Sequence record: MN871446.1
Length of the DNA: 64,000 nt
Source: Klebsiella phage KpLz-2_45
Strand: one strand, 5' to 3'
The notes under the pieces were generated by a model, which was not told where the DNA came from, searched no databases, and saw only the letters and a program-made list of their open reading frames with translations. Of the stretch, positions 3,037-57,060 are shown piece after piece; the stretch's first letter is position 1, and every line of letters begins with the position of its first letter. The position numbers were made by a program, and so were the translations under genes.

Positions 3037-3100
3037 CGAGCAGTCTCCTCAATAGAACAATCGATTCCCCTTTTCAGAGTGAGAGAAGGATTCTGAATTT

Positions 3101-5899
3101 ATGAATAGTTACGAAAAGAAAACGGTGAATCCTACCGGGATCAAAGTTTCCAGTCGTCCACAGGATTGGCTCCAACGCACCCCTTCGGCTACGGCAATTA
3201 TGTCGAAACTGGTTCAGGATGCGGTACATCGTACGACTACACCTGGAAATGGTGTCGATGTTCCCGACCCAACGATTTTCGACCGTCTCGTCAGTCGTCG
3301 CGCCAGAAAGAACCTGGACGCAGAAACAATCATCTCTTTAGCGCCCGACATTAAATTGATTAAACAGATGATTGTTTCCACTACCCTTTCTCCGGTCGAT
3401 ATGACCCAAGGAGAGTTAGGATTTAAAACCGAGGCGTCAGAGATCCCGCCAAGCGTCCTCAATCAAGTCACAGAGGTCATACGGGATCATTTTGAGTCAT
3501 ACTACCCCTTACGCGATAAACTCCCTGAGATCATCGGAGAGGCGTTATTTGAAACAGGTGCGTGGGTCGGTGTAATTGTCCCGGAAGCTGTTATCGATGA
3601 CATCATCAACCTTCGCGAAGTCGGCAGTTATCTGGCCACGGAAAGTTTCAACGAGAAACTGAAAACGCATTTCGTTGACGGAACCTTAAAATCTGTCGGC
3701 ATCTTAGGTGACCCAGGAATTACCGATCAGGAAATCCGTGATGCGAATAAAGGTAAAAAGAACATTCGCAGTAGTGCACCGGCACCGTCTTTAGAAAGCA
3801 TGTTCTCCATGCCGGTTATGAACCCTAATCAGGTTCGTATTAATGACAGTGCCACCATCACCGATAACCTCGGAATTATGGGTTTGAGCCATATCCGTAA
3901 CCAGATTAATGAAGAGCGTTTGAGAAACAAATACCGCTACGGACGTAGCGGAGCAGGGATGGAGGCGTACCGGTCAAGAAACGGTCATAACAACGTCTCG
4001 ACGGTCGCGAGAACGCTTTACAACTCACGGTCTGGTCAAACTAGCGTTAACCCTGTTAAAGTCATTCCTGCGGCCTCAGAAGCCAGCAGAAGCAGTATTG
4101 GTCATCCGCTGGTCATTAAGTGCCCCTCAGAATCGGTGATTCCGTGTTACCCGAAAGGCGATGAGCGAAACCACATCGGTTACGTCATTGTCCTGGATGA
4201 GCTGGGTAACCCGATCAACTTAACCGATGAACTGAACCAGGCGGCCACTAATGGTCAGATCGGTACAATGGGTGCTCAGCAACAACTGGACATGACCTCC
4301 AGTTTAATCCAGCAAACCCGCATTGCGCAGAACGGTATCTGTATGGATACCGACAAAATGGCGGCGGAAGAACGTATTCGCGTCTATAACCAGGTCTTAG
4401 AGGAAAACATCCTCAACCGTATTAAAAACGGTTTGATCGGTCGTAACGTGAAGATGGCCTGGAACGAAGATATCATGCGTATCATGATGTTCCGTCAGTT
4501 TGCGAACCAACGTACTAACCTCGTCTTTGTCCCTGCTGAACAAGTCGCGTATTTCGCTTACGACTACGACAGTAACGGGATGGGGAAATCGTTGCTTGAT
4601 GACATCAAACAGGTCTCTGCACTGCGAGCCATGACCACCTTCGCTAACTTTATGGCGGGCGTGAAGAATGCGGTAGGACGAACCAAAGTAACGATGAACA
4701 TCGACCCGCGTACACCTGACCCCGAGAAAGCTTATGCGATCTTGATTGATGAGTATCAACGAATGACCAGCACCGTTACTCCTACGGATGTCAGTTCTTC
4801 GGCGGAAATGTTCCGCGTACTCAGAATGATGGGGACGACGATTGAGGTACAGGGTAACCCACGTATCCCGAATACCACTGTGGACATTAATGAGTACCAA
4901 TCTCAGAAACAGATCATTGATGAGAACTTTACCAATGATCTTCGTCGTCAACAGTATATGGGTCTCTTTGTTACACCGGCGATGGTGGACATGACTGACG
5001 AGGCAGACTTTGCTATCACCCGTTGGACGTCTAACCAGCTCTACGCTAAACGCATCATGATGATTCAAGACGACACCTGTAAGCACGGGAAGAAGCTCGT
5101 CAGATCATACGTGAACTCGGACGGTGTTTTAATCGGACGTATTCAGAAGATCTTTGCCGAGAACAACGATAAGCTCCCTGAAGAATATCGTCTCGATAAA
5201 GAAAGTCAAATCCCGGAAGATTTAAAATACCTCGATGCGATCGACGCTTATTTTGACGCATTCTACCTTGAGTTACCTCGTCCGGAAAATAACCGGATTG
5301 AGAAACAAAAAGAAGAATTCGACAAAGTGAAAGATATGATTGACGACATTGTCGACTGTTACATCTCGAGCGAACTTCTGGGGGCATTTGCACCGGAAGA
5401 TCAATCTAAGATCGATATGCTCAGGGCACACATGACAGCGTACCTGAAACGCGACTGGTTACAGAGTCAAGGCTTCGATATGGGCTTTGTGAAGATCCTG
5501 TCGCCGGTCACGGAAGAAGATCCATCGCTGGATATGATCAAAGTCTTTACTACCGACATTGTCAATATGCTGCATAACTTTGGCGATTTCAGTTCGGCAT
5601 TGGCGGCCACCCGTGACGCGTTACTGAAACGGATGGAAGTAGAGAACCCGAAACAACATGAGATCCTTACAGCCAATAATGACGCTGGCGGCGGTTGGGA
5701 CAATGGCAGTTCCGGAAACGATTGGGACAACAACGATTCCGGTGGTGGCGACGCCTTTGGCGGTGGCGACTTCGGTTCCTTCGAAGATACCGAGGAAGAT
5801 CCTTTCGCCACGGACGAGTTAGAAGGAGGAGGAGAAACTTCCACTGAAGAGGAAGCAGATCCTTTCGCTACACCAGAAGAAACAAACGGACCTGAATAA
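3101..5899 (+). CDS. large virion protein, 932 aa, acidic Gly/Asp-rich C-terminal tail with EDPFAT repeats (portal protein candidate)
   Basis: Long ORF with SD AAGGA 8 nt upstream of ATG. The C-terminal 80 aa are a GGG/D/E low-complexity tail with two EDPFAT copies. Size matches ~900-aa portal proteins of phiKZ-like phages. The function call is inference only. Confidence 0.8.
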   Translation: MNSYEKKTVNPTGIKVSSRPQDWLQRTPSATAIMSKLVQDAVHRTTTPGNGVDVPDPTIFDRLVSRRARKNLDAETIISLAPDIKLIKQMIVSTTLSPVDMTQGELGFKTEASEIPPSVLNQVTEVIRDHFESYYPLRDKLPEIIGEALFETGAWVGVIVPEAVIDDIINLREVGSYLATESFNEKLKTHFVDGTLKSVGILGDPGITDQEIRDANKGKKNIRSSAPAPSLESMFSMPVMNPNQVRINDSATITDNLGIMGLSHIRNQINEERLRNKYRYGRSGAGMEAYRSRNGHNNVSTVARTLYNSRSGQTSVNPVKVIPAASEASRSSIGHPLVIKCPSESVIPCYPKGDERNHIGYVIVLDELGNPINLTDELNQAATNGQIGTMGAQQQLDMTSSLIQQTRIAQNGICMDTDKMAAEERIRVYNQVLEENILNRIKNGLIGRNVKMAWNEDIMRIMMFRQFANQRTNLVFVPAEQVAYFAYDYDSNGMGKSLLDDIKQVSALRAMTTFANFMAGVKNAVGRTKVTMNIDPRTPDPEKAYAILIDEYQRMTSTVTPTDVSSSAEMFRVLRMMGTTIEVQGNPRIPNTTVDINEYQSQKQIIDENFTNDLRRQQYMGLFVTPAMVDMTDEADFAITRWTSNQLYAKRIMMIQDDTCKHGKKLVRSYVNSDGVLIGRIQKIFAENNDKLPEEYRLDKESQIPEDLKYLDAIDAYFDAFYLELPRPENNRIEKQKEEFDKVKDMIDDIVDCYISSELLGAFAPEDQSKIDMLRAHMTAYLKRDWLQSQGFDMGFVKILSPVTEEDPSLDMIKVFTTDIVNMLHNFGDFSSALAATRDALLKRMEVENPKQHEILTANNDAGGGWDNGSSGNDWDNNDSGGGDAFGGGDFGSFEDTEEDPFATDELEGGGETSTEEEADPFATPEETNGPE

Positions 5900-5971: not shown

Positions 5972-8191
5972 TTAGTCTTGACGACGCAGAGCCAGTACAA
6001 AGCTATCGGATTTAGCATCCTGATAATCTTTGCGGACTTCTAACCAGCTGTTATCGGCGAACCAGATATAGTTCAGGCACGCGATATCGCTACCGGCATT
6101 AAAGTTCATGGCTTTCAGCGCGTTATGCAGTTTAGGTGAGGTTTCTTGGGACACGAAGAAGATTTCACCCGGCTGAGCATCAGCACTGATTCTCAGTTTC
6201 AGGTCGTTAACCAGCATCGGGGCGATAACCATATTGATACGTTTTACCACATAGATGGTACGCGCATCGGTGGTTTCGTTGACACCGGCACCAATAATCC
6301 CTGAACCCAATTTAAACATCTGGAAGTTAGCCAGGTGGAACGAGAACGCGCCAGCCAGTTTCTTCGCAAACTCAGCGCCACGTGCTTTAGTGACGTCATC
6401 CGCCAACGTCGCCAGATCTTCAAAGCTTTCAATGCGCAGACCGCAACCCATTTCCAGACGGAAGATAGAGTTCACCAGTTCGACGATATGGCGTTTCGCA
6501 GCCACTACCAGCGCAACAGGAACACGATCGATGACACGCTTCAGGTTATCGTGGATATCCTGAATATAGCTCAGTTCAATATTGTCATTGAAGTTGAGGC
6601 CCGTCATCTCCAGTTGACGCAGCGTGAACCGTGCTTCTTCCGGCGTAGCGCAAGTGTAAATCGGTTCGTAGGATTCCGCGGCGGTTTGGAACGCATTGAA
6701 GTTGGTGTGCAGGTGACCGTTCTGATCGTTGGTCATTTCTTCGGTACGAGACATTTCCTGCATACGGATATGACCCAGACCGAACCCCTTCACCGTTTCA
6801 TCTGAACGGAGAATATTCTCGAACGAGATTGTTCCCGCGTTCGGGGCTTCAGGAACCACCTTCTGTTCTTCCGGCGGCAGGGCGCTGTTTTCTTCCTTGA
6901 TACTGGCAACCACGGCTTCGTACTCCTGACGGTCCTGGTCACGAAGTTCGCGGTTAGCTTTCACGTTAAAACGTGGGCCGGCGATCGCTTTACGGATCTC
7001 GGCGTTTTTCGGGTGATAACGATTATCGGCTTCTTTTGCGCCGATGACGTTCAGTTCGTGAATTTTACGATCCACTTCTTTTACCTCTTCAGCGGTTAAC
7101 GGTTCAAACGCCATGTAACGATAACCGTCACTGGTGATGTCCCATACAGGGCGAACAGAGTCCACTTCCCATGCGATTGGGCGGTGGTTATTCGCTTCGT
7201 TCGGATGGAGCGGGATAGACATGACCACTTCGTAATCGTCTAATTTGATCAGACCCGATTCAATGTCTTCACGGGTAATAGGACGATTCGCTAAGCGGTT
7301 ACCTTTTGATGAGTAACCCGGTGCAGATTCAGCCGGCGCGGCTTTCTTTTTACTGAATGAAGCGGGGCGAGTGACTTCATGCGGTTCTACTCGCTCGTAC
7401 GCCGGCGCGGCGTTCGCAGTGCGTGGGTCTGGCATTTCGAAATCGTCACGTTCGTCACGATTCACTTCATTCCCATTTGCTTGTTCGCGCATACGGGCGG
7501 TGGCGACATACGGGTTAACACGACGGCGATTGTTACGGGCAGCATTAATATCTACCGCAGGTTCCCGACGAGAGTCGGCACGACCACGAGTAGGGATAGC
7601 GCTTTCGTAACGGCCGGGGCGAGAACCGAAACCACCGGAACTTCGTCCACGATCATCGCGATCTTCGTAACGACCTCTGCGTTCATCACGACCACGGCCT
7701 TCATAACGCCCACGACGCTCTTCTTCGCGTCCACGACCGAAGCCGCCACTGCTACGACCAAAACCACCACGACGGTCGTCGCGTCCACGGTCACCAAAGC
7801 GACGACCACGATCAGCTTCTTCCGCATACTCTTCCAGTGCACGACGCAGTTTATTAGCATTGTCAGCCAAAAACAGCATGTCGTCTTCTGTACGGCGATC
7901 GGGGATATCGACACTACGGTCTTCTTTGATCAGTGCCCCGGCAAAGAATGAGGCGAGTTCAATTGCTCCTTCCCAAAGGTCATCTGGTTCTTTACGGAGG
8001 TCAACTAACATTTCCATGGAGTCGAAAACGAAGTTGATTAAGTTTTCACGGGTCTGACGACTGCGACGAATCGCATCGTCAAGGTATTCGAAGAACGGAT
8101 CGTCACGGGACAGTTCGCTGATGCGTTCATCCAGGAAAGCAGCCAGGTTGCGATCGTTAAAATCCATCTCATTACGACGACGGTTATACAT
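5972..8191 (-). CDS. hypothetical protein, 739 aa, with internal RG/RGG-rich low-complexity segment (aa ~125-200)
   Basis: Long ORF. Segment RGRDDRRGGFGRSSGGFGRGREEERRGRYEGRGRDERRGRYEDRDDRGRSSGGFGSRPGRYE. CGT/GGT codon bias. Confidence 0.8.
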   Translation of the reverse strand: MYNRRRNEMDFNDRNLAAFLDERISELSRDDPFFEYLDDAIRRSRQTRENLINFVFDSMEMLVDLRKEPDDLWEGAIELASFFAGALIKEDRSVDIPDRRTEDDMLFLADNANKLRRALEEYAEEADRGRRFGDRGRDDRRGGFGRSSGGFGRGREEERRGRYEGRGRDERRGRYEDRDDRGRSSGGFGSRPGRYESAIPTRGRADSRREPAVDINAARNNRRRVNPYVATARMREQANGNEVNRDERDDFEMPDPRTANAAPAYERVEPHEVTRPASFSKKKAAPAESAPGYSSKGNRLANRPITREDIESGLIKLDDYEVVMSIPLHPNEANNHRPIAWEVDSVRPVWDITSDGYRYMAFEPLTAEEVKEVDRKIHELNVIGAKEADNRYHPKNAEIRKAIAGPRFNVKANRELRDQDRQEYEAVVASIKEENSALPPEEQKVVPEAPNAGTISFENILRSDETVKGFGLGHIRMQEMSRTEEMTNDQNGHLHTNFNAFQTAAESYEPIYTCATPEEARFTLRQLEMTGLNFNDNIELSYIQDIHDNLKRVIDRVPVALVVAAKRHIVELVNSIFRLEMGCGLRIESFEDLATLADDVTKARGAEFAKKLAGAFSFHLANFQMFKLGSGIIGAGVNETTDARTIYVVKRINMVIAPMLVNDLKLRISADAQPGEIFFVSQETSPKLHNALKAMNFNAGSDIACLNYIWFADNSWLEVRKDYQDAKSDSFVLALRRQD

Positions 8192-8233: not shown

Positions 8234-9850
8234 TTATTCGGTAATTTCCCGCTGTACCATATCGAGGAGTTCAATGTTTTTCGGATTACGAATAAATTTC
8301 CCAGCGTCGTCGGTGTGGGCGTAAACGTTTAGACGTCCACGGCCGTCGGGGATACCTTTCGCAAAGTTGCACACTGAACCACATTCCATGATACTTGAAT
8401 GCAGGTGGTAAGCCGTTTCGTTAGGTTTGAAACTTTTTGTCTTACCTTTACCGATAACAGCATTGACTTGACGGATAGCGATACACGTGTGTTTGAAAAT
8501 CATGTTATCGCCCGGGTACTGAACAGAGTTAAGTTCGCCGTGTCCCCGTTGGATACCGAGGAATGCGTTAGTGGTTAGGAAACTAGACAGCTTCCATGTT
8601 AACCGCTTCAGTCGCAGCGTTTTCTGTTCTTTTTCTAACTGCCAGGTAAAGTTAAAGATACTCTCCGTGATGCCCGATAACGCATACCGTTTCACCAGGA
8701 GATATTTCCCCCACATGTTACCCGAATTATCGTCTTTCAGTCGATCCTGGATTGTTTCAAGGATATGGATAAACAACTCGTAAAGGTCATTGGCCATGAT
8801 CCCTTCTTGACGAAGATTTTTCTTCGTCTCGCCATCGACGTAAGAGTCGAGCGACTTAAGATGGAGATCAACCTTGTTGAGCAGTTTCCCTTCGTTCTCG
8901 TTCCCCTGATGCAGAATAAAACCCATGATAATGCGCCACGTGTCTGGCATATCGATGTACTGCAAATTGAAGCGTTGCGGGTAACGATCGACGACGTAGA
9001 AGAAATGCGTCGCCAGTAACTGAACACCTATGTTGTTCAACACCGCTTCACGCGGAATGATCAACGCCAGGTTCGTGGGTTTCCAATCGCTGATTGCGCG
9101 GCGGCGTTCCGGCGGCGGTAACCCTTGCGTGGTAAAGATCACGTAGTCTTGCTCTGGGTAATCCTCACGTAAGTTGTGACGGTTCTCTTCGATCACGACG
9201 TCAATGTCGTAGAAACGTTTAAAGGTTTCCGTTACGCCATACTTACAGAACAGGTAATGACCCAGCGTCGAGTTAAACGACGATTTCTTCCCTTCGTTCC
9301 CTGTTTTACCTTGATAGATATTTCCGTAGACTACAAAGGACGGGATTGATTCGCCGTCTTGTAGGACACTGTAAATACTCCGTTTCAAAGTGAACTTCGC
9401 TCGGAAGAGGATCGTGAACAAATCATTCCCGGCTACCGAGAAAACCAAATCCGCCAGGATCGGATGAATTGTTGCACGTGAGCCGCCTAACCATAACGTC
9501 CCTGCTTCCCTGACAAACGGAATATTGATGTTCCGTGGTAGGATGTGGATTTTCTGAAAACGCAGTTTCATTTCCGACATCACCGCGTCAGTTTGCGCAA
9601 TATCAACTTCCCCGCGACGTTCCGCCTTTTCATTCCCTTTAATGATCGCCTGAGACTCTTCGTAGGGCGTCAGTCTACGCATCCCCAGGTATTCGACATC
9701 GGGAGGAAAGTCCTGTGCCGCACAATGCGCAATTCGATCGATATACTGTTCGGCATCCTCTAAATCCTTAACAGCAAATCCACCGGCAATGTCTTTGTTG
9801 AACTTGGGTAACGGTTCAACAATGTCATTAAACAATGCTATATCAGCCAC
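8234..9850 (-). CDS. hypothetical protein, 538 aa
   Basis: Long ORF in an operon-like arrangement with short gaps to its neighbours. Confidence 0.75.
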   Translation of the reverse strand: MADIALFNDIVEPLPKFNKDIAGGFAVKDLEDAEQYIDRIAHCAAQDFPPDVEYLGMRRLTPYEESQAIIKGNEKAERRGEVDIAQTDAVMSEMKLRFQKIHILPRNINIPFVREAGTLWLGGSRATIHPILADLVFSVAGNDLFTILFRAKFTLKRSIYSVLQDGESIPSFVVYGNIYQGKTGNEGKKSSFNSTLGHYLFCKYGVTETFKRFYDIDVVIEENRHNLREDYPEQDYVIFTTQGLPPPERRRAISDWKPTNLALIIPREAVLNNIGVQLLATHFFYVVDRYPQRFNLQYIDMPDTWRIIMGFILHQGNENEGKLLNKVDLHLKSLDSYVDGETKKNLRQEGIMANDLYELFIHILETIQDRLKDDNSGNMWGKYLLVKRYALSGITESIFNFTWQLEKEQKTLRLKRLTWKLSSFLTTNAFLGIQRGHGELNSVQYPGDNMIFKHTCIAIRQVNAVIGKGKTKSFKPNETAYHLHSSIMECGSVCNFAKGIPDGRGRLNVYAHTDDAGKFIRNPKNIELLDMVQREITE

Positions 9851-14084: not shown

Positions 14085-15644
14085 ATGAATTATAAAATGA
14101 CGATTGTGAACGCCTTGGCGCTGTTGTTCTGGGAAAACCAGATTAGTTCAGGAAGCGATAGTAAGGCACTCGTCAAGAATATCATGCAGTATGCTAACCC
14201 CGGTAAAAACTCCACCGACAGTGACAGAGTAAAAGAAATTTACGAAGGGTTACAAGTTCTCATTCTTAAGATGACGTCACGTCAGGATCTTTGTAAGAAT
14301 AGAGAACTCATTGTACAGAACGTCAGAATGATTGCAGCGGATGAACCTTACGTTGTCGACATTGTTGAAGGGGCACTCGATTTACACTTAGACGAAGCCG
14401 CCATCAAAAACCATTGTCGTCTCCTGATTCAGGAGTTAAACGACGTCATACGTAAAGCAGAGTTTCGCAAACGCTTCCAAGAATTCAGTAAAGATGTGCT
14501 TTACGGTGACGGGGAATTTCAGCTGAACGAAGTCGCCAGAAGCATGATCACGCATTTTGAAGGTTATGCGCACGATAAAAGTGATAAGCCTGAACATACA
14601 CCAGGCGTTATGGATTTCGTTGACTTCAACGATGAAGAATCCCTGAAAGCAATCTTCACCCGAGCCCGTGACCAGATCTCTCCGGACGAGATTATCAAGT
14701 TTGGTCTCCAGGGGCTCAACCGGATGTTTGGTGAGCAAATGGGTGGTCGTCGCGGTGAGATGGTTTTAGTCGGGGGTTTACAACACCATTTCAAATCGGG
14801 TCTGACAATGATGATGACTCGGGGCGCAGCACTTTATAATATCCCTAAATTAAAAGACCCGACGAAGAAACCGGCAATCGTACTGATATCGTCTGAGAAC
14901 GACCTGCCGATCAACATGCAAACCATGTATAAGCAATGTGTTGAACCGACGTTAGGACGTCAGATTAAGAAGAACGAAATTGATCCTAATATTGCAGCAC
15001 AGTTCATGAAAGAGAAGTTTGCCGAGAATGGTTGGCATTTCTTGATGTTCCGCATTAACCCGGATGAATTCACTTTCTCTTCACTGCAATCGTTGACGTT
15101 AGGTCTCGAAGCAGACGGTTACGAAATTGTCGTCATGACGTTCGACTATTTGGCGATGATGTCCAGTAAAGGTTTTGATAACGGTGGAATCACTGGACGT
15201 GAGAAACAAGCCATGTTTAAACGCACCCGTAACTTTATGGTCATGCGTCATGTTCTGTTTATCACGCCTCACCAGTTGTCAACCGAAGCCTTGAGCATCG
15301 AACGTGATCGCCCTGGGCAGTTCCTTAATGAGATACTTAACCGAGCTTACTATAACGAATGTAAAACCATCGCTCAGGAAGTAGACTTTGAAGTCAATAT
15401 CCAAAAACAAATTGTCGATGGCGTCGCGTATTTAAACTTGGGGCGCGGTAAACACCGTGGGGTAGATAACACACCAATTCAGGATCAACGTTGTACCTAC
15501 CGCTTTACGGACATTGGGATTCCTGATGACATTTACACCGAAGACCAATCGATGAAAAAACCAGGTGCCCAGACCGCAGGACAGGGTGGGGGTGCAGCTT
15601 GGTTCCAAACTAACGACCAACTCAACGATTTCGTACTCAACTAA
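14085..15644 (+). CDS. hypothetical protein, 519 aa
   Basis: Long ORF divergent from 13467..14027 and followed by an intrinsic terminator. Confidence 0.8.
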   Translation: MNYKMTIVNALALLFWENQISSGSDSKALVKNIMQYANPGKNSTDSDRVKEIYEGLQVLILKMTSRQDLCKNRELIVQNVRMIAADEPYVVDIVEGALDLHLDEAAIKNHCRLLIQELNDVIRKAEFRKRFQEFSKDVLYGDGEFQLNEVARSMITHFEGYAHDKSDKPEHTPGVMDFVDFNDEESLKAIFTRARDQISPDEIIKFGLQGLNRMFGEQMGGRRGEMVLVGGLQHHFKSGLTMMMTRGAALYNIPKLKDPTKKPAIVLISSENDLPINMQTMYKQCVEPTLGRQIKKNEIDPNIAAQFMKEKFAENGWHFLMFRINPDEFTFSSLQSLTLGLEADGYEIVVMTFDYLAMMSSKGFDNGGITGREKQAMFKRTRNFMVMRHVLFITPHQLSTEALSIERDRPGQFLNEILNRAYYNECKTIAQEVDFEVNIQKQIVDGVAYLNLGRGKHRGVDNTPIQDQRCTYRFTDIGIPDDIYTEDQSMKKPGAQTAGQGGGAAWFQTNDQLNDFVLN

Positions 15645-39536: not shown

Positions 39537-40838
39537 TTATTTCAACGTGTTGAGTAAATTCGCAGCAGCGAAGAGATTGTTATTCGCCACGGCTTGGAGA
39601 TCTTGCAGTAAGATACGTTTTTCTTTTTGGTCGCGTAACTTACTCGAGAAGAACAACCAGAGTTTTTCATAATAGCTTTCTTCATCGAGATTACTTTTCA
39701 GATTGGCAATAACATCGATATTCTGACTCAGCTCCACACGTTCTTCAGGCAGAAGACCAGGTTCTTTCATCCGTTGGATAATATCCTGACGTAACCTTTC
39801 TAAACGCTCGTCTGCTTTATCGTAAACGCGATCTACGGGTTTGATTAAAAGTACCAGTAGTTCAATGTATTTACGGAAGTTAAAACCGAACTTGTTTACC
39901 GCAAAACCAAGAATGAAGAAGAACCGAATAATTTTCATTCCCCATAACTGGAAATGATCTTTGAGTGTTTTCTCGGTCATGTTCTTTTGGATTTTATCCA
40001 ACCCAGTGGCCAGCGGTACGGTCAAACCCATACGGGAAGAAAATTGGTCGGACAGACTCTCCCATGATCGCATGTCGTAAATGCTGGCACCGAATTCAGA
40101 CTTCGTTTGGTCGTAAATATCAGAGAAAATCGAAATGGCCAATACGTCAGGATTGATGTCTTCCTCGGCGACGACATCAAGATTGCTGATTTTAATCCCG
40201 GAGAAGTTTTCCACGCCCATCAGAATTTTGACTTTTTCTTCTGGTGAATTCGATTTCTCAAGACGTTTAACTGTATCAACAAGGATAAAGCAGGTACTGA
40301 AAGTATAAGCCAGGGTCTCGAGATACGTAAAGATGTGACCGACTTCATGGAGAATGATAGCGACCACTTCGTCTGGGTTAACATCCGGGCTAGAGATTAA
40401 CTCTTGGGTCACCATCACCGAACACGGCATTTCCTGGAAAAACCCGCCTACTGTCGCTGTGGCACGGTTCACCCAACCTACCCCATTATTGAGGTTCTTA
40501 TCTATTGCGGCTTTACCGGCACCCGCGTGACCAAGTTGATTGCTGTACGTTCTGACCATCACGCTGTTTTTAACAATAGACGGGGTTTGGGCGATGGCGT
40601 TGAAACCTCTTTCCGGGATTATTTGGAACGTGAGTCCTTTCAGTTTGAAACGGTCTCTCAGGATTCGTTGAAAAATCGTGCAGAATGCTTTGTTTACTTT
40701 TTCATTTACCTCACCGTTACTCTCTGTACGGTAGTCTTCTATCGTAATGATCAGTTTCTTACAAACAGGGTCGTAGCCCTGAAAATCAATTGACTCAAAT
40801 GCAGGCAGTGAGAGTCGGGTAATTTTTTCATCTAACAT
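39537..40838 (-). CDS. putative zinc metallopeptidase (HExxH), 433 aa
   Basis: Motif AIILHEVGHIFTYLE (H-E-x-x-H) in an otherwise unrecognised protein. Confidence 0.7.
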   Translation of the reverse strand: MLDEKITRLSLPAFESIDFQGYDPVCKKLIITIEDYRTESNGEVNEKVNKAFCTIFQRILRDRFKLKGLTFQIIPERGFNAIAQTPSIVKNSVMVRTYSNQLGHAGAGKAAIDKNLNNGVGWVNRATATVGGFFQEMPCSVMVTQELISSPDVNPDEVVAIILHEVGHIFTYLETLAYTFSTCFILVDTVKRLEKSNSPEEKVKILMGVENFSGIKISNLDVVAEEDINPDVLAISIFSDIYDQTKSEFGASIYDMRSWESLSDQFSSRMGLTVPLATGLDKIQKNMTEKTLKDHFQLWGMKIIRFFFILGFAVNKFGFNFRKYIELLVLLIKPVDRVYDKADERLERLRQDIIQRMKEPGLLPEERVELSQNIDVIANLKSNLDEESYYEKLWLFFSSKLRDQKEKRILLQDLQAVANNNLFAAANLLNTLK

Positions 40839-40964
40839 TTCGTGGCTCCTCAGGGGAAAGCGCTACCATAAAGGAAGGGTTACACAAGAAAGCGACACGC
40901 TCCAAAAAGAAGACGCTATCTATTCCTGTAGACCTTGAAAGTTTGACTCAGGAACCAGCCCGTT

Positions 40965-42701
40965 ATGAAAAATATTAAGCGCGATGACATTGAAGGTTAT
41001 GAGTTTAAAAACTCCTTTTTTGTTCAGTCTGCCAATACGCCTGGAAGCGACCTATTAGTCGTTAAAGAAATTATTCATCTTAAAAATAAAGAACAAGTCC
41101 CTAATCTTCGTTTTATCAAAGACTTTAAACGTCCTTATTACGTTACTCGTGAGAGCCAACGTAAGTACAAAGAAAAACGTGTTTGGGAAAGCCTTGATAA
41201 TCTGCGCCGTTACGAGTGCACGCAATCAGCCTTAGCCTCTGATATTCAACGCAAATTAAAAACCGGTAGAGGCGGCGTAAAAACACTCAATCGCAACCCA
41301 TATCTTTTTGGTACTGATATCACTAGTTCTGTTCTGATCAAACATCAGTACATGACGAAATTCCCGCACCTTAAAAGTTTATACCGTGTCGCGCATCTCG
41401 ATATTGAATTTGACGTGGTCGACGGAACGAACAGTATCAACATGATCTCGGTGTCCTGTGGTGACCGTGTCTTTCAAGCGATCACTAAAGCCTATATCGG
41501 AACGAGTATTGATTTCGTTGAGAAAGTCAAACAGTGCTACGAAAGGGAAGTTGTCCCTATCCTTCGCGAAGTCGATCAGAAGATAAAGCAGTTTAAAGAT
41601 AAAAAGATTCATCACCATTTTGACCTCGAAATCTACGAAGCCGCTGACGAAGCTGATGCGGTACAATGGATCTTTAATATTCTCCACAATGTCTTAAAAC
41701 CTGATATGCTATCGATTTGGAACCTGCCTTACGATACCAAAAAGATGATGCAGGCATTAGACCGGAGGAATATCCCACGTGAGTACGTTTTCAATGATCC
41801 TTCTATCCCTGACGAGTTTAAGTTCTTTAACCTCAAAGAAGGCGAAGCGAAGATCTTTGACGCGAACGGCGTAGGGGAATCAAAAGACCCATGTGACCGT
41901 TGGCACCGTGTTCAATCTCCAGGGCACTTCTTCTGGGTTGACCAGATGTCTGTTCGTCGTGCTGTTCGTAAACACCTGAACAAAGAACCCTCTTATGCCT
42001 TAGGCGACATTCTGTACAAGGAATTGGGTTTTGGTAAGTTGAAAGGCGATAAGGGCGTTCGTTCCACCGGGATCGACTGGCACAAACACATGCAGCGCGA
42101 AGAAAAAGTTTTCTACTGCGTTTACAACATGTTCGATAACATCGGTGCCCAACTCCTCGACGAGAAAACAGAAGACTTACGTTCTACGTTTCCTGCTCAA
42201 TGCGGATTCAGTGAACTGCAGTCGTACGGTTCTCAAGGTCGTAAACTTGCTGATGACTTTTACTTTGATCTCTTAGAGAAAGGGTACGTCTTAACGGGTA
42301 CGTCCGATAAGATGGAGAAAGAGCTCGACAAGCATCTGGTTCCACTCGATGGTTGGATCTCTACGTTAGCAGCGCATCTTATCCACGAAGAGATGGGGAA
42401 CAAAGTCCTTAAAGAGCACCCGGGTACATTCACTAAGATCGTTAAGTGGGTATTGGACATCGACGTTAAGTCTTCCTATCCTTCTACTGGGGTATGGATG
42501 AACCTGTCGCAAGAAACCACGAAACGGGCGATGTGTAAAATCATTGGGGTCGATTTCGAGGAACAAAGACGGGCAGGGTTGAACTTGTGTGCAGGGAGGG
42601 TCAACTCCGTCGAAATTGTGACAAAGCTCTGTAAAGCGCCTACTCAATTACAGATGCTTCAGCGCTTCTGTAAGGCGAAGGGAATTAAACTTGAGGATTG
42701 A
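40965..42701 (+). CDS. family B DNA polymerase, N-terminal fragment (3'-5' exonuclease domain + polymerase motif A); split polB
   Basis: Exo I: VAHLDIEFDVV (D-I-E). Exo II: YCVYNMFDNIG (Y-N-x-x-F-D). Pol motif A: LDIDVKSSYPS (D-x-x-S-Y-P-S) about 70 aa before the stop. No motif B (KxxxNSxYG) or C (YxDTDS) before the ORF ends. Confidence 0.8.
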   Translation: MKNIKRDDIEGYEFKNSFFVQSANTPGSDLLVVKEIIHLKNKEQVPNLRFIKDFKRPYYVTRESQRKYKEKRVWESLDNLRRYECTQSALASDIQRKLKTGRGGVKTLNRNPYLFGTDITSSVLIKHQYMTKFPHLKSLYRVAHLDIEFDVVDGTNSINMISVSCGDRVFQAITKAYIGTSIDFVEKVKQCYEREVVPILREVDQKIKQFKDKKIHHHFDLEIYEAADEADAVQWIFNILHNVLKPDMLSIWNLPYDTKKMMQALDRRNIPREYVFNDPSIPDEFKFFNLKEGEAKIFDANGVGESKDPCDRWHRVQSPGHFFWVDQMSVRRAVRKHLNKEPSYALGDILYKELGFGKLKGDKGVRSTGIDWHKHMQREEKVFYCVYNMFDNIGAQLLDEKTEDLRSTFPAQCGFSELQSYGSQGRKLADDFYFDLLEKGYVLTGTSDKMEKELDKHLVPLDGWISTLAAHLIHEEMGNKVLKEHPGTFTKIVKWVLDIDVKSSYPSTGVWMNLSQETTKRAMCKIIGVDFEEQRRAGLNLCAGRVNSVEIVTKLCKAPTQLQMLQRFCKAKGIKLED

Positions 42702-42732: not shown

Positions 42733-42764
42733 GCTACTGGAACCCTTAACGGGGTTCCAGTAGC
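42733..42764 (+). terminator. intrinsic terminator after polB fragment (GCTACTGGAACC-cttaac-GGTTCCAGTAGC)
   Basis: 12-13 bp stem 30 nt after the stop, followed by GATTGTGTCTTTAG. Confidence 0.55.
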
Positions 42765-42810: not shown

Positions 42811-44184
42811 TTACTTCAATGCACTCTTCCAGTCAAACTTCTCCACTTTCAATGACCTTCCATGCATCGCACTCATCTGGATACCCATAATTATCGATCC
42901 GACCTCTGTAGCCAGTGCCCCTAAAGCGGTCTTCGTATTCTCGAAACGTTTCCCGATACACTTCACGCAGAAGTTACCGTCGGTCGTGTGGCAAAAAAGC
43001 GGTGAGCGGAACAGATAACGTTTCCCATGTGAGGCAGCGGCGATCTCTGGCGTCATGAGAGTGAGTACGTTCTTCTCATCAAAGAAGTAAGACCAATGAA
43101 AACCTTCCTCATTCTCTTTCGTTACCGTGTGCTCCAGCCCAAGTCTGGAACCGCAATCGTCTTCTGCAATAGCCGTGTTCATGAAGAAGCGACCAATGAA
43201 CTTAGCGGCCTCGCCCCCTAAGGCGGTCATAGCGCCTCGGTTGAAGGAACCGTCGATAAGGGAGTTCGCCATCTCCGGAAGTTTATTGATATCCCATTGC
43301 TCTGACAGCGGGTTTTGAATAACCGTGATTTTGTTTCGGTTTTCAAAGTCGTATTCGATAGCGTGGGAGATATAAGCCTTAGCACGGACGACGTCGAAGT
43401 CTTTAGAACCGGGTCTCAGGAATCCTTTCTCGGGGTCTTGGGACTGGAATTCGATATCGTACTTGATCAGTTCGGACATGATTTTGGCGACAATTGCAGG
43501 ATCGTCAAGTTGGTCCTTATACTGTTCGTACAGTGCCGTACGGCGTTTTGCCATGTCAGGGGCAGTAACGATCGTGTAGGGTGTTGCAGCGGGTGTTGCG
43601 AGCTGACACCAGCCCGTTAAAGAGAAAGCGGCCGGATAGTATTTACTTTCCAGTTCATCGGTGTAGATCTTCTGTGGATCGCGTTCACTGGGGTCTTCCG
43701 GGGGTGTTTCTAACAGTTCGGCAATCTTATCTTCGATCTTGCCTATTTTGATCTCACCCGCTATAAAAGGAATACGGTCTTTGAAAGGGTAACAAAGTAC
43801 CGTTTGATTAACCATGACATTCCCTACAAGTGTAGTGACTTTCTCTTTTACGTTGACGAGGTCGCCTGGTTCTAAATCAATTTTGTCTTTGAACCGGAAA
43901 GGGGCGATACCTGGTTCAGCACCTTGAAGAACTTCCCATTCTTTACTGAAGGGATTAAAGAAGACTACCTGACCGTCTTCCTGGAAAAGTTGAAAGGGGT
44001 ATTCCTCGAAATCTTCGCGACGGGGTTCATCTTTAAAGTAAAGCGGGTACTTCCCGTTCGGTCTGCGCTCAGGGTCTTTCTCCGGGTAGTTGACGATACC
44101 AAAAGCATCGATGACCCATCCTTTATAAAGGAAACTGCCGTAGTTCAGAGCAGTTAATAAATAATCGCGTTTAAGCATGGTCAA
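42811..44184 (-). CDS. multisubunit RNA polymerase beta-prime subunit, C-terminal fragment homolog (phiKZ-like split RNAP)
   Basis: [30 protein letters not shown] aligns to bacterial beta-prime ...[57 protein letters not shown] aligns to ...[21 protein letters not shown]. A stand-alone 457-aa ORF. Confidence 0.8.
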   Translation of the reverse strand: [457 protein letters not shown]

Positions 44185-49383: not shown

Positions 49384-51348
49384 ATGTTTAATTTTGCTAA
49401 AGCCGCATTTGGAATGGTTGAAGTAGAAGAATCGAACGGAAAGATTAAGATCACCGCTATTCGTTCTAAGGACGCTTTAGGGGAAATTTATAATACCTGG
49501 CGTACCTCTCGTATCGAACAAAGTATGTTCACTAAGATTACGCCTTACAGTATCGAATTTTACAGTTTCTTCGCGGTAGAGTTTGTTTACATTCTCGATC
49601 AGATTATCGCCAAACAGGGGCGAAGTATGATTGCGAAGAAAACATTGAAACAAGTGAAAGAAGGTATTCTCACTAATACTTGGATGCGGTCTACTCAGGT
49701 AGATCACGACCCTATTTTGGATCGCAGTAAACTGAGCCTGTTTACCAAAAGCCCGCTGCGCCATCAAATGGAATTCATTGATCATTACGATACTGTTGTT
49801 CCTAAATGGCAGCTCAGCGGTTACTGTATGGCTATGAATACTGGGTCCGGGAAAACCTTGTCTTCGTTAATGATCGCAGAAATGCTCAATGTTGATATCA
49901 TTATCATGGTATCATTAAAAGCGTCTATTTATCGTGTCTGGGAAGATGCGATGCAAAATGATTACAAAAAGACGCCTGAGTACTGGGTTCAGGCACGAGA
50001 TGGATCATTGCCCTCGGGAACATTACCGAAGTATTTAATCTACCATATGGAAGCTATTGGTAAATTACTGGAAGATTCCGGGCGATTCACTGGTAAGAAA
50101 ATTGCATTAATACTCGACGAATCTCACAAACTGAATGAGCTTAGTTCTCAGCGCACTCAAGATATTTTACAATTTTGTAAGCGTATACAACCCGTTACAA
50201 CGCTATGGGCTTCCGCAACACCGATCAAAGCGTATGGTTCAGAAGCTATCCCAATGCTGGCGACGTTTGATAAGATGATGACGTTAGAGGCCATGGAAGC
50301 CTTTAAGAAACTATACGGGAAGTCAAGTAAAAAATGTTTTGACATCATACGTCATCGTATGGGCAATGTCATGTTTAAAGTGGAAATTGTTAAAACCAAC
50401 CCAATCATCGAGAATGTTCCGATCAAACTGAAAGACCCGGATAGGTTTTTACTGTCTACGTTGAAAATGGACATGAAAGACTATATTCTGGAGCGGATTG
50501 AGTACTGGAAAAAACTTGAGCCGCAAGTTAAGTTAGGTTACTATTCTGGCGTAGACAAATATGCTCGTACTGTTAAGACTAAAGAACAAGAAGCTCAACT
50601 AAAACAATACCGACGTTTTGTTGAGCAAATCTCTAAAACCACCGATTACCAAATGGTGAAAGAAGAGATGATGTTCTGTAATAAGTTTGAAAAGAATTTA
50701 ATCGAGCCCTTGCTGCGCGGAGAAGATTTAAAGAATTTCCGTAGTTACAAATCAGTGATCAAATATTTACCGTTAAAAGTTCGTGGTGAGTGTTTAGGTA
50801 ACGTCGTAGGGAAGCGCAGAGAAGAAGTTACACTTGCTTTAATTGCGGAGTGTGATCTTCCTAAATACATTAAAGCGGCAGAGAAGAAAACTATCATTTT
50901 TACTAGCTACGTGAAAGCGGTAGAAATGACAGAAAACTATCTGGTGTCGAAAGGATTCAAACCTGTAACCGTTTACGGGGAAGGTGAGGATTTAACTAAA
51001 CAAGTGAAGCGATTCTTTGATGATAGTAGTATTAACCCATTGATTGCAACCTATCAAAGTTTATCTACTTCGGTTCCCTTGATCGCAGCGAACGTTATTT
51101 TAGCCATCAACGCGCCATTCCGCGATTACATCATGGAACAGGCTATCGGTCGTATCGACCGTATTAACCAAAGTGCCCAAACCTATGTCTTTAAGTTCTA
51201 TTTGGAGACATCGGAACCTAACATCAGTAGTCGAACACTTGATATCTTAACCTGGTCGGAAGAACAAGTGAACCAAATACTTGGTGTGAAAGAGGAGGCG
51301 GTAGCCCTGGAAGCTTGGTCACTTGAAGCCATTCCGCAATACACGTAG
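49384..51348 (+). CDS. superfamily 2 (DExH-type) helicase, 654 aa
   Basis: Motif I MNTGSGKTLSS. Motif II LILDESHKL. Motif III WASATPI. Motif VI QAIGRIDRINQ. Confidence 0.8.
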   Translation: MFNFAKAAFGMVEVEESNGKIKITAIRSKDALGEIYNTWRTSRIEQSMFTKITPYSIEFYSFFAVEFVYILDQIIAKQGRSMIAKKTLKQVKEGILTNTWMRSTQVDHDPILDRSKLSLFTKSPLRHQMEFIDHYDTVVPKWQLSGYCMAMNTGSGKTLSSLMIAEMLNVDIIIMVSLKASIYRVWEDAMQNDYKKTPEYWVQARDGSLPSGTLPKYLIYHMEAIGKLLEDSGRFTGKKIALILDESHKLNELSSQRTQDILQFCKRIQPVTTLWASATPIKAYGSEAIPMLATFDKMMTLEAMEAFKKLYGKSSKKCFDIIRHRMGNVMFKVEIVKTNPIIENVPIKLKDPDRFLLSTLKMDMKDYILERIEYWKKLEPQVKLGYYSGVDKYARTVKTKEQEAQLKQYRRFVEQISKTTDYQMVKEEMMFCNKFEKNLIEPLLRGEDLKNFRSYKSVIKYLPLKVRGECLGNVVGKRREEVTLALIAECDLPKYIKAAEKKTIIFTSYVKAVEMTENYLVSKGFKPVTVYGEGEDLTKQVKRFFDDSSINPLIATYQSLSTSVPLIAANVILAINAPFRDYIMEQAIGRIDRINQSAQTYVFKFYLETSEPNISSRTLDILTWSEEQVNQILGVKEEAVALEAWSLEAIPQYT

Positions 51349-51372
51349 CAAAAAAAAAGAATATAGCGGATA

Positions 51373-51404
51373 GTTTCCCTACTGCCACTAGGCAGTAGGG
51401 AAAC
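51373..51404. terminator. bidirectional intrinsic terminator (GTTTCCCTACTGCC-acta-GGCAGTAGGGAAAC) between convergent genes
   Basis: 14-bp stem flanked by an A9 run on the 5' side and TTATATTAGTTTG on the 3' side. Confidence 0.7.
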
Positions 51405-51409
51405 TTATA

Positions 51410-51793
51410 TTAGTTTGCGTCTGTCAAATCAAGGAATTCAATTCCCATGAAAACACAGAGAGAAGGGTTAGTAGTCGATGAGTTAGCGTACATGACCCGT
51501 ATACGCGTATCATTGAATCGTGAGACGGCCGCGGTAAACTCGATAGGGTGAATGTATTGCTCTGGACGAACCGGGTTCTTGAACGCTTTAGGGAACGCTG
51601 GGGGAAGGTTATCAACCTGATCGTAATTCCATTCTCCCATCGCCGCGTATGTCTTGAGCATGATCGCCGCTTTTTGTTTGGCTTCCGCGACACACGGTTT
51701 AGCATATTTAACATCAGGCGATGCGTATCCTTCTGCTGCAAAGGAGGTGGCGGAAATGACGGAGAGAATCAACGCGATAAAAATGTTTTTCAT
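51410..51793 (-). CDS. small secreted/periplasmic protein with N-terminal signal peptide (MKNIFIALILSVISATSFAAEG...), 127 aa
   Basis: Classic signal peptide (basic residue, hydrophobic core, AxA-like cleavage site). Function unknown. Confidence 0.65.
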   Translation of the reverse strand: MKNIFIALILSVISATSFAAEGYASPDVKYAKPCVAEAKQKAAIMLKTYAAMGEWNYDQVDNLPPAFPKAFKNPVRPEQYIHPIEFTAAVSRFNDTRIRVMYANSSTTNPSLCVFMGIEFLDLTDAN

Positions 51794-51834
51794 TTATGAA
51801 TTCCTTATTGACTGAAGTAAGTAGGAGGGGGTGT

Positions 51835-52380
51835 TTAAACACTAACGGCGAAATTAACCATGCCAAGTTCTAAAATTATTTCAGCCAACTTTTTACAGTT
51901 AGCGTAACTTGAATGTTCAAACGTACGAACCATGTCGATGGTTAAGCCATCGATGTTTTCATAGTCTTTCACGTTGAAGGTTTTAAAATTAACTTTACCT
52001 GCATCCGGGTCGTTAACGTAATCAGGTTTAACTGGCAAAACAGAATCGATAATGTCGGAATAAAGTTCCTTAATTACACTCACCGCCATTGCGTCAGTAT
52101 CGTAGCTACTAGTCTCAGTGATGATAGGTCCGATAAAATACAACGTTCCGTCATTGATGCCATAGCTAAAGGCTTGGACGCCGAGTGCTTCAAAAAATTT
52201 TAAGAAGTGACCCCAATGTTCATTTTCATTGTTTTCACGATACGTGTGCGTCGGACAAAATTTGTATTCAATACCCTTATTGTAATGAAAATTACAGTCT
52301 TTAATCTCTGACCCCAAAAATATTTTTGCACACGCTTCAACATATTTTTCGATTACGACTTCAGTTAATTTAATCCGCAT
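51835..52380 (-). CDS. hypothetical protein, 181 aa; tandem paralog of 52455..53099
   Basis: Shares motifs CNFHYNKGIEYKF versus CNFYYTNMYDFKF, and GVQAFSYGINDGTLYFIGPIITE versus GVKGFSYCFDRNELYFISPIISE. Confidence 0.7.
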   Translation of the reverse strand: MRIKLTEVVIEKYVEACAKIFLGSEIKDCNFHYNKGIEYKFCPTHTYRENNENEHWGHFLKFFEALGVQAFSYGINDGTLYFIGPIITETSSYDTDAMAVSVIKELYSDIIDSVLPVKPDYVNDPDAGKVNFKTFNVKDYENIDGLTIDMVRTFEHSSYANCKKLAEIILELGMVNFAVSV

Positions 52381-55815: not shown

Positions 55816-55905
55816 TGGCAGAGAGTGAGAGATTCGAACTCTCGGTACCCTTTCGGATACACTCCCTTAGCAGGGGAGCGACTTAAACCGCTCATCCAAC
55901 TCTCT
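55816..55905 (-). tRNA. tRNA-Ser (anticodon GCT), class II, CCA encoded
   Basis: Folds manually: acceptor AGAGAGT/ACTCTCT, anticodon arm CTCCC-CTGCTAA-GGGAG (same sequence as the E. coli Ser-GCU tRNA arm as I recall it), long variable arm, T-arm GAGAG-TTCGAAT-CTCTC. Confidence 0.85.
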
Positions 55906-55912
55906 ATTAAAA

Positions 55913-55989
55913 TGGCGACTCTTCCAGGACTTGAACCTGGGACCTACAGCTTAACAGGCTGCCGTTCTAACCAACTGAACTAAAGAGTC
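55913..55989 (-). tRNA. tRNA-Asn (anticodon GTT), CCA encoded
   Basis: Acceptor GACTCTT/AAGAGTC, anticodon loop CTGTTAA, T-arm CCAGG-TTCAAGT-CCTGG. Confidence 0.85.
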
Positions 55990-55995
55990 ATTATT

Positions 55996-56070
55996 TGGCG
56001 GTGCTACGGAGAATCGAACTCCGGTCTCCTCCGTGACAGGGAGGTATCCTTTCCGCTAGACGATAGCACC
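55996..56070 (-). tRNA. tRNA-Asp (anticodon GTC), CCA encoded
   Basis: Acceptor GGTGCTA/TAGCACC, anticodon arm CCTCC-CTGTCAC-GGAGG, T-arm CGGAG-TTCGATT-CTCCG. Confidence 0.8.
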
Positions 56071-56081
56071 TTTTGTTTGGT

Positions 56082-56178
56082 TGTTCCCTTCCGGATTTGA
56101 ACCGGCAACCTCCTGCTAAGCAGTGGGCGGCGCAGTGGCCGCCGATGCAGGCGCTCTACCTAGTTGAGCTACGAGAAC
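56082..56178 (-). pseudogene. tRNA-Ala-like gene with 30-nt insertion in the anticodon loop (disrupted or intron-containing tRNA); no encoded CCA
   Basis: Minus-strand read GTTCTCG-TA-GCTCAACTAGGTAGAGC-G-CCTGC[ATCGGCGGCCACTGCGCCGCCCACTGCTTA]GCAGG-AGGTT-GCCGG-TTCAAAT-CCGGA-AGGGAAC-A. The backbone resembles enterobacterial tRNA-Ala (..AGAGCGCCTGC..GCAGGAGGT..). The insert contains a perfect hairpin GGCGGC-CACTGC-GCCGCC. Confidence 0.5.
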
Positions 56179-56186
56179 ATTGAATC

Positions 56187-56262
56187 TGGAGCAAGCAGCG
56201 AGGTTCGAACTCGCGACCTATGACTTGGAAGGACATCGCTCTACCAACTGAGCTATACTTGC
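56187..56262 (-). tRNA. tRNA-Gly (anticodon TCC), CCA encoded
   Basis: Acceptor GCAAGTA/TGCTTGC, anticodon loop CTTCCAA, T-arm GCGAG-TTCGAAC-CTCGC. Confidence 0.85.
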
Positions 56263-56340
56263 TTTGAATTTCGTTCATAAGATGATGAAATTACTTAATT
56301 TTTGATCCGCGCACCAGTATTCTCGTTAACCAACGGGGAA

Positions 56341-56796
56341 TTATATCTTTGGTTTCTTATTAGCCTTTTTACAGGCAGCTCTGTAACCGACCGTATCAAA
56401 AATACCATTGATGGAATGTTTAATGATTATACCCTGAGAAAGTCCGGTAAATAACGCGGCATCTCTAATCGTGTCATAGATCCACCCATCAATAACCCAA
56501 CAAGTTCTCCGTTTCACGTCGGCGTAATAATGAACTTCTTTACTATCATGATAATTATCACGATCCGTACCAATAGACAAATGCTCAGGATTACAGCAAC
56601 GGGTGTTATGGCAAGAATGTCTTACTACTTTACCAATTGGCACTGGCCCATAAACTGTAGTGAAGACAAATTTATGAGTTGTCCAATATTTACCGTTCCG
56701 TGTAAACTGGCCGTAACCAGCGCTATTGCAAGATTTATTCCAATTCCAGCAACCGGTTACTTTATCTACCGTTGTATTTTCTTTAATAAATTCCAT
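56341..56796 (-). CDS. HNH homing endonuclease, 151 aa
   Basis: Motif GCWNWNKSCNSAGYGQF...HKFVF...GPVPIGKVVRHSCHNTRCCNPEHLSIGT, the canonical C-W-x-W...G-Y-G...H-x-C-x-N...C-x-N-P-x-H-L HNH signature. It sits between two groups of tRNA genes. Confidence 0.75.
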   Translation of the reverse strand: MEFIKENTTVDKVTGCWNWNKSCNSAGYGQFTRNGKYWTTHKFVFTTVYGPVPIGKVVRHSCHNTRCCNPEHLSIGTDRDNYHDSKEVHYYADVKRRTCWVIDGWIYDTIRDAALFTGLSQGIIIKHSINGIFDTVGYRAACKKANKKPKI

Positions 56797-56894
56797 GTGT
56801 TTATAATCTCTTTCTGTTAATTGTTTATCAACAGAGTGATATATATTTTAAGGAATTTTGGTTGCTCTATCCTGCTGAGCTAAGAGGACGTAGA

Positions 56895-56979
56895 TGGTGC
56901 CCAGGGCGGGGCTCGAACCCGCACGCGATAAAGCGAGGGATTTTAAATCCCTTGTGTCTGCCGATTTCACCACCTGGGC
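56895..56979 (-). tRNA. tRNA-Leu (anticodon TAA), class II, CCA encoded
   Basis: Acceptor GCCCAGG/CCTGGGC, anticodon arm AGGGA-TTTAAAA-TCCCT, T-arm GCGGG-TTCGAGC-CCCGC. Closely resembles E. coli Leu-UAA tRNA. Confidence 0.85.
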
Positions 56980-56984
56980 AAATA

Positions 56985-57060
56985 TGGTGGGTCCAGCAGG
57001 TTTTGAACCTGCGACCAAGCGATTATGAGTCGCCTGCTCTAACCACTGAGCTATGGACCC
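56985..57060 (-). tRNA. tRNA with CAT anticodon; anticodon arm and body match enterobacterial tRNA-Ile2 (ileX, lysidine) rather than elongator/initiator Met
   Basis: GGGTCCA-TA-GCTCAGTGGTTAGAGC-A-GGCGA-CTCATAA-TCGCT-TGGTC-GCAGG-TTCAAAA-CCTGC-TGGACCC-A-CCA. The GGCGACTCATAATCGCTTGGTC block matches E. coli ileX as I recall it. Confidence 0.8.

Follow-up and report, generated by a model that had tools for sequence, protein, structure and literature searches.

Here we describe an open reading frame (ORF) in a 64,000-nucleotide stretch of the genome of Klebsiella phage KpLz-2_45 (sequence record MN871446.1; hereafter the window), which appears to encode one part of a divergent family B DNA polymerase (polB) whose remaining part is specified by a distant gene. 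The ORF runs from ATG to TGA at 40965..42701 on the plus strand and specifies 578 amino acids, made up of an N-terminal domain, a 3'-5' exonuclease, a first palm segment with motif A, and a 53-residue tail specific to this piece. It is very probable that this product (the N-piece) is the N-terminal subunit of a two-subunit replicative polB, co-folding with a second polypeptide (the C-piece) in a chimallin-encoding Klebsiella jumbo phage. The case is built on homology, residue conservation, complementary coverage of polB profiles by the two pieces, the lack of any fused form among the homologs scanned, and the place where the partner gene lies. The gene itself belongs to a known system and is already annotated, its product being 100% identical to the GenBank entry "DNA polymerase [Klebsiella phage KpLz-2_45]".

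Assignment of the N-piece to family B draws on several profile and structure comparisons. The PHROG profile phrog_3011 ("DNA polymerase") covers residues 3-575 of the protein over profile positions 3-571 of 576 (E 2.9e-196). A profile made from 39 homologs and compared with the PDB using HMMER recovered RB69 gp43 (E 2e-5), the alignment passing through Exo II, Exo III, and motif A one after another. When the N-piece profile was compared with six polBs of the T4 type by hhalign (97.4%, E 1e-11), residues 39-525 ran colinear with RB69 20-436, closing with DIDVKSSYPS...NLSQETT over the RB69 segments FDLTSLYPS...NISPETI. A Foldseek search with residues 1-450 of a structural model returned family B enzymes, namely the archaeal polymerases Tgo, KOD, and 9°N as well as Pol epsilon, at E ~2e-9 over 460-510 aligned columns. 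The original prediction, made from the letters alone, had called the ORF a family B fragment carrying an exonuclease and motif A and ending before motifs B and C, and all of these comparisons agree with it. Of the checks it proposed, profile searching did place the ORF in polB, but not through the suggested Pfam models: a Pfam scan of the ORF gave nothing at E<=1, DNA_pol_B_exo1 and DNA_pol_B included, because the phiKZ-type clade is so divergent. A single-sequence phmmer search against the PDB likewise gave only noise.

The catalytic residues were located by alignment to RB69, and their conservation was assessed in 146 N-piece representatives with no more than 50% mutual identity, as well as in a second set, the 39 homologs. 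All of them lie on the plus strand. Exo I (D146-I-E148, 41400..41408), which the original prediction had recognised in HLDIEFDVV, is invariant in 146/146 and aligns to the RB69 segment FDIEV, Exo I of that enzyme (D114/E116 in the usual numbering). Exo II is N253-L-P-Y-D257 (41721..41735), within IWNLPYD and aligned to RB69 WNVESFD (D222); N253 is Asn in 140/146 representatives, and D257 is Asp in 140 and Glu in 6. The peptide YNMFDNIG, read earlier as Exo II, is present and strongly constrained, but its label has to change: Y387-N-M-F-D391 (42123..42137) aligns to RB69 YNIID (Y323...D327) and is thus the YxxxD of Exo III, with Y387 and D391 both conserved in 146/146. With the Exo I, II, and III residues so conserved in the 146 representatives, the exonuclease is predicted to be active.

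Motif A reads D498-I-D500-V-K-S-S-Y505-P506-S507 (42456..42485), is followed by NLSQETT, and aligns to RB69 D411-LTSLYPS and NISPETI, in keeping with the earlier identification of DIDVKSSYPS as polymerase motif A. D498 is conserved in 146/146 representatives and, counting ungapped rows, D500 in 143/143, Y505 and P506 in 138/138 each, and N513 in 136/138. The 39 homologs also have D146 and E148 of Exo I and D498, D500, Y505, and P506 of motif A without exception. Judging by these columns, motif A is under selection as strong as that on the exonuclease centre.

The stop codon (42699-42701) lies 71 residues past S507, the last residue of motif A, matching the original estimate of about 70 residues, and no motif B or C precedes it. 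By ordinary standards a polB that ends there is truncated, so that a sequencing frameshift, an assembly error, or decay of a once full-length gene into a pseudogene might be suspected. The family gives this suspicion a negligible probability. Eight phage genomes that are 98% identical have the gene at an unchanged length, and the ortholog in FBKp24, at 79% nucleotide identity, is of identical length (1737 nt). The 52 homologs retained after clustering at 90% measure 481-653 amino acids. A wider search, through 1.84 billion proteins, yielded 601 representatives with E<=1e-30, and the best 150 of these 601 were examined: they are mostly ~550-620 amino acids long (range 489-894), and the full-length members among them all end where the N-piece profile ends, as do the 52 homologs, while those of ~490-525 amino acids stop earlier. 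Since the short length is the family norm, frameshift and pseudogene can be ruled out as its cause. In addition, a strong hairpin and a convergent gene come right after the stop, the C-piece shows no similarity to any frame of the window, and its own gene, located elsewhere, is intact and conserved. The in-frame continuation that would have spoken against a split gene thus failed to appear.

Fused forms are equally missing. The C-piece profile found similarity in 0/146 N-piece representatives, an exonuclease domain occurs in none of the 120 C-piece homologs listed (of 937 matches), and no fused form of the phiKZ-type polymerase was found among the homologs scanned. Three N-piece representatives have additions of other kinds, all unlike the C-piece: P0234 has an acidic, alanine-rich C-terminal tail of ~330 residues with no Pfam match, P0364 an N-terminal DUF4326 domain (E 6e-14), and P0285 an N-terminal extension of ~130 residues.

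The missing half was found in a close relative. The original prediction held that the rest of the polymerase must be encoded elsewhere in the genome and proposed a search for motifs B and C in the forms KxxxNSxYG and YxDTDS. Window ORFs longer than 100 amino acids contain neither, and C-piece similarity is lacking from every frame of the window (best tblastn E 1.8; best profile E 0.35). In phage MJ359, which is 98% identical, the motifs do appear, as K153...N157..S160-G161 and S401-DTD-S405, in kpMJ359_082 (49900..52116), a protein of 738 amino acids that matches the Pfam family PF20286, "Divergent Family B DNA polymerase" (divDNApol), at E 1.3e-232. The expectation of a second gene is therefore borne out, and the N-piece ORF on its own is, by its motif content, a polB fragment and not a complete polB, because motifs B and C are missing from it and present in the partner protein. 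In MJ359 a distance of ~52 kb separates the partner gene from that of the N-piece, with the two on opposite strands; kpMJ359_081, upstream of it, encodes an SH3DP protein (PF20287, E 1e-36), and the chimallin ("nuclear shell protein") gene follows one gene on. The MJ359 layout places the partner of KpLz-2_45 ~31-33 kb beyond the right end of the window, and P0111, from KpLz phages, is 99% identical to the MJ359 C-piece.

A first candidate for the partner, at 8234..9850 (minus strand) in the window, was ruled out. It is the homolog of phiKZ gp123, an nvRNAP subunit (PDB 7ogp_E, E 2.4e-147), has 538 amino acids and a GTG start, and matches phrog_2943 and AR9 nvRNAP beta (E 6e-10). Its MJ359 ortholog is labelled "polymerase" only and could readily be taken for the other half of polB; a gene so annotated is an RNA polymerase subunit, which calls for caution.

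The C-piece family comprises 937 matches, with lengths of 704-877 amino acids among the 120 matches listed, and PF08719, recorded once, is the sole Pfam domain in these 120 apart from divDNApol and DNA_pol_B. Across 52 C-piece sequences the invariant residues (52/52) are R123 and K127; K153, N157, S160, and G161 of motif B (KxxxNxxSG); T180...R184; D284; S401-D402-T403-D404-S405 of motif C; K467-N468-E469; and K482...Y484. A fold comparison gave RB69 and T4 gp43 as the best matches (E 1e-4, probability 1.0), followed by Pol alpha and the herpes simplex virus and poxvirus polymerases. Between the TxxGR helix and motif C the protein has a helical insert of ~200 residues (residues ~185-395 of P0111, L005:7900-10116), whose invariant residues are G200, R202, H203, Y204, P238, Y254, R276, Y281, D284, and N292. 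A "long multi-helical insert" of the C-piece was noted before and was speculated to replace the sliding clamp (Iyer et al. 2021).

Together the two pieces cover the canonical polymerase in a complementary manner. On phrog_262, a generic polB profile of 856 positions, the N-piece occupies 36-425 and C-piece residues 107-190 occupy 460-554. Against RB69, the N-piece alignment stops at residue 436, and C-piece profile positions 80-149 align to 437-507. In local-mode hhalign, C-piece residues 109-172 align to RB69 468-579, pairing R123 with R482, K127 with K486, and K153 with K560; the greedy setting (-mact 0.1) gave a meaningless global alignment (7%), and local mode was used in its place. Further on, residues 482-529 align to RB69 706-755, the KKRY region. 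These alignments of the C-piece to canonical polBs are individually weak (E 1e-4 to 1e-2) but colinear and mutually consistent. On this mapping the break comes after motif A and before the fingers (about RB69 437-467), and it apparently passes through the catalytic palm domain. Each side of it has material of its own. Residues 526-578 of the N-piece (42540..42698, plus strand), beyond the last residue aligned to RB69, form a 53-residue tail without canonical polB counterpart, which is present across the family (the phrog_3011 profile is covered to its end) and may serve as a docking segment for the C-piece; the C-piece starts with a specific head of ~90 residues.

Extensions on both sides of a junction, here the 53-residue tail and the ~90-residue head, are also what might be expected if the pieces were joined by a split intein, by protein trans-splicing into a single chain, as in cyanobacterial DnaE. 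N-inteins measure ~100 amino acids, and the tail is too short to be one. A C-intein is a beta segment of ~35 residues that ends in HN followed by C, S, or T, quite unlike the C-piece head, which is an alpha+beta unit with helices at 21-36, 40-52, and 81-90 and a predicted local distance difference test (pLDDT) score of 82-95. Phage polB genes often contain inteins and homing elements, MIJ3 being one example (PMC6892783), but no Hint or intein Pfam family was detected on either protein at E<=1, and we regard trans-splicing as very improbable.

Two polypeptides that co-fold into one enzyme are the favoured reading. The N-piece would supply the polB N-terminal domain, the complete proofreading exonuclease, and, of the palm, the first strand, which bears D500 (the motif A aspartate) and the invariant D498; the C-piece would supply the fingers (R123/K127 and motif B), the ~200-residue helical insert, motif C, the KxY motif, and the thumb. 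The two-metal active site would then be composite, its motif A carboxylate coming from the N-piece and its motif C carboxylates from the C-piece, and proofreading and synthesis would be physically coupled as in an ordinary polB. We infer this association of the chains, and the shared active site, from sequence mapping and from models of the separate pieces. The N-piece was modelled as a chimera with the nvRNAP gp123 homolog, an irrelevant protein that served as a negative control. In the model residues 1-450 have pLDDT >90, and residues 457-578, which hold motif A, 40-60; within the lower parts the motif A region scores 40-50 and the tail (526-578) 50-70. In the C-piece model (mean pLDDT 83, predicted template modelling score 0.77), residues 379-410, the segment with motif C, form coil with pLDDT 58-63 and no beta-hairpin. 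Each piece alone thus fails to fold just that part of the catalytic sheet which it contributes. This pattern and the invariant motif A support a composite two-chain active site. Such an arrangement is also feasible, since Pfu polB engineered as two fragments split between motifs A and B retains full activity, its C-fragment folding only with the N-fragment (PMC3061061).

The most serious competitor to this two-subunit enzyme would have the ORF encode a stand-alone proofreading exonuclease with a relic of motif A, the divDNApol protein being a complete polymerase with all of its carboxylates (provided, for example, by D284 or by D222, which is D229 in phage EL) and associating at most loosely with the exonuclease at the fork. 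Two published analyses see the pieces in this way. Kazlauskas and Venclovas (2011; PMC3201878) assigned both metal-binding aspartates (D229 and D398) to the polymerase ORF of EL, the first piece is called a 3'-5' exonuclease in a 2021 survey (PMC7824862), and D284 of the C-piece is indeed invariant. In EL gp021 (L006 22489..24591) D398 is the second Asp of SDTDA, motif C, and this part of the 2011 assignment fits. D229 (LQFAD) corresponds to D222 here and lies C-terminal to a near-perfect motif B (K160-IFN-N164-S-Q-S-G168); its column, likewise after motif B in the C-piece, reads D44/N6/E2 in the 52 sequences. Because the column varies (Asn or Glu in 8/52) and the order is wrong for a polB, the assignment is doubtful, and the published identification of EL D229 as motif A looks wrong. 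Moreover, the predicted structure puts D222 and D284 in alpha-helices of the insert instead of where a beta-strand ends, the model of the C-piece lacks the motif C hairpin, and a search of the 52 C-piece sequences for a motif A substitute found no invariant acidic residue before motif B. On the side of the N-piece, a relic would not be as conserved as the invariant D498, D500, Y505, and P506, or N513, in the 146 representatives. We therefore consider the stand-alone exonuclease unlikely, yet clearly less so than the other alternatives.

Several points weigh against the two-subunit enzyme and temper our confidence in it. The basis for a composite palm is indirect, consisting of sequence mapping and of low local confidence in two separate models, and the hhalign match of the C-piece is weak (probability 38-47%, against a shallow template of six sequences). 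The role of the invariant D284 is unexplained. Both published descriptions treat the C-piece as a polymerase lacking the exonuclease only (PMC3201878, PMC7824862), the former placing both catalytic aspartates within it. Finally, no biochemical or structural work on this clade or on the two pieces was found in the literature, and the PDB holds no close entry.

The surroundings of the N-piece gene are those of a phiKZ-like jumbo phage. The region is 98-98.5% identical to the ~300 kb Klebsiella jumbo phages KpLz_1_41, KpXa_1, LPKP23, and MJ359, and 79% identical to FBKp24 (Maaswegvirus), and the background is phiKZ-like and chimallin-encoding, with split multisubunit RNA polymerases (RNAPs), a divergent DnaB, and, in MJ359, a nuclear shell gene near the partner. 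As noted originally, the next gene lies on the opposite strand: the convergent gene at 42811..44184 (minus) encodes a piece of a split RNAP beta subunit (phrog_2962, E 2e-129). Between the two genes, at 42733..42764, lies a hairpin whose stem measures 14 bp, picked out by a scan for terminator-like elements and by inspection of the letters, and it is likely a bidirectional terminator; the trailing T run sought by the scan is weakly developed in it. A divergent DnaB-like replicative helicase is encoded at 14085..15644 on the plus strand (Pfam divDNAB PF20307, E 8e-112; phrog_3213), of a type reported to travel with divergent polB (Iyer et al. 2021). The superfamily 2 (SF2) helicase that had been pointed out at 49384..51348 is confirmed by matches to Pfam ResIII, DEAD, and Helicase_C and to phrog_62; the type of SF2 helicase found nearby tracks with the phage RNA polymerase and not with the DNA polymerase (Iyer et al. 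2021).

Further observations concern the rest of the window. Just upstream of the N-piece gene, a 433-amino-acid gene at 39537..40838 (minus) matches phrog_2767 and has a weak M48-peptidase-like HExxH stretch. When window positions 40000-45000 were compared by megablast, the matches of LPKP23 and MJ359 began at query positions 753-756, and those of the KpLz, KpXa, KpSz, and KpZh phages at position 1; this difference (~40000..40752) therefore points to a local mosaic boundary inside the 433-amino-acid gene. Immediately downstream of the nvRNAP subunit gene, a 739-amino-acid ORF (5972..8191, minus) has neither a PHROG match nor a meaningful Pfam match and contains, at roughly residues 125-215, an RGG-like low-complexity stretch rich in Arg, Gly, Asp, and Glu, for example GRGREEERRGRYEGRGRDERRGRYEDRDDRGR. 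Six tRNA genes (Ser-GCT, Asn-GTT, Asp-GTC, Gly-TCC, Leu-TAA, and Met-CAT) were predicted by ARAGORN at 55816..57060 (minus). For this region the annotations of MJ359 and FBKp24 contain further tRNAs, among them Tyr, Gln, Arg, and two "tRNA-OTHER", and that of FBKp24 includes a suppressor-like tRNA-Sup-TTA.

From a practical standpoint, the "exonuclease" ORF of phiKZ-like phages would be half of the polymerase proper, with an invariant motif A; for this reason, genetic and biochemical studies of the chimallivirus replicase would do well to express the two pieces together, probably along with SH3DP. Caution is also needed in annotation, as the Pfam polB models miss the N-piece and its detection needs PHROGs or profile-profile methods. 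As a discovery the gene carries little weight, the split polymerase of phiKZ-like phages having been in the literature since 2011-2012 and the protein already deposited and named. The residue-level argument for motif A on the exonuclease piece is the only modestly new point, and from that placement it would follow that the two published domain descriptions (2011 and 2021) are imprecise.

Compared with other divided polymerases, the arrangement in KpLz-2_45 is that of the phiKZ-related, chimallin-encoding phages (OBP, phiKZ, EL, and SPN3US; the PolBrPhiKZ clade, PHROG 3011 plus PF20286), with no difference in kind, just as the original prediction had likened it to reports on phiKZ-like jumbo phages. 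The "split subunit DNA polymerase" of phiKZ was recognised ten years after its genome, and that of SPN3US consists of gp18 and gp44 (PMC5105663, PMC5694885); both papers cite Cornelissen 2012 on OBP for the split. The clade as a whole is described as a divergent polB branch (PMC3201878, PMC7544198, PMC7824862). EL has the same layout as MJ359, a PF20286 gene (gp021) with SH3DP upstream and chimallin nearby, plus a separate "exonuclease" ORF. What differs is the mapping, which puts motif A on the exonuclease piece, in contrast to the 2011 (PMC3201878) and 2021 (PMC7824862) descriptions.

T4-related Aeromonas and Acinetobacter phages (Petrov et al. 2006, 2010, summarised in PMC3061061) also make their polymerase as two polypeptides: the exonuclease and motif A belong to gp43A, motifs B and C to gp43B. 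In Aeromonas phage avDM7-IJDJ, for example, gp43 is encoded as 498 + 391 amino acids with a 48-nt gap (L011 1197..2693 and 2742..3917) and a break at RB69 512/514. The T4-type break is hence at the fingertip, while that of the KpLz-2_45 type would lie before the fingers (~RB69 437-467); the distance between the genes is 2 bp to 3 kb in the T4 type and ~52 kb, on opposite strands, in the phiKZ type; and the T4-type pieces are canonical, whereas the phiKZ-type N-piece is missed by Pfam polB models. A separate kind of interruption is annotated in gp43 of Acinetobacter phage AB-Navy4 (L008 1161..4294), where an intron holds several small ORFs.

Among cellular enzymes, the split PolB of Methanothermobacter thermautotrophicus has its pieces encoded 85 kb apart, reconstitutes one enzyme, and breaks in the palm (Kelman et al. 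1999, cited in PMC3061061). That break lies ~83 residues C-terminal to the fingertip, after motif B (PMC3061061), and the phiKZ-type break before motif B; the former system is cellular and canonical in sequence, the latter viral and divergent. RM378, in turn, is split between the N-terminal and palm domains (PMC3061061). As aligned here, the phiKZ-type break position matches none of the other natural polB splits in PMC3061061. We suggest, tentatively and with more doubt than conviction, that the full combination, a replicase whose catalytic centre is built in trans, a break unlike those other natural splits, and 2011 and 2021 assignments in need of correction, both holds true and has so far gone without explicit mention in print. 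The engineered Pfu split shares with the phiKZ type a cut between motifs A and B, but it is artificial, bicistronic, and placed at the fingertip (PMC3061061).

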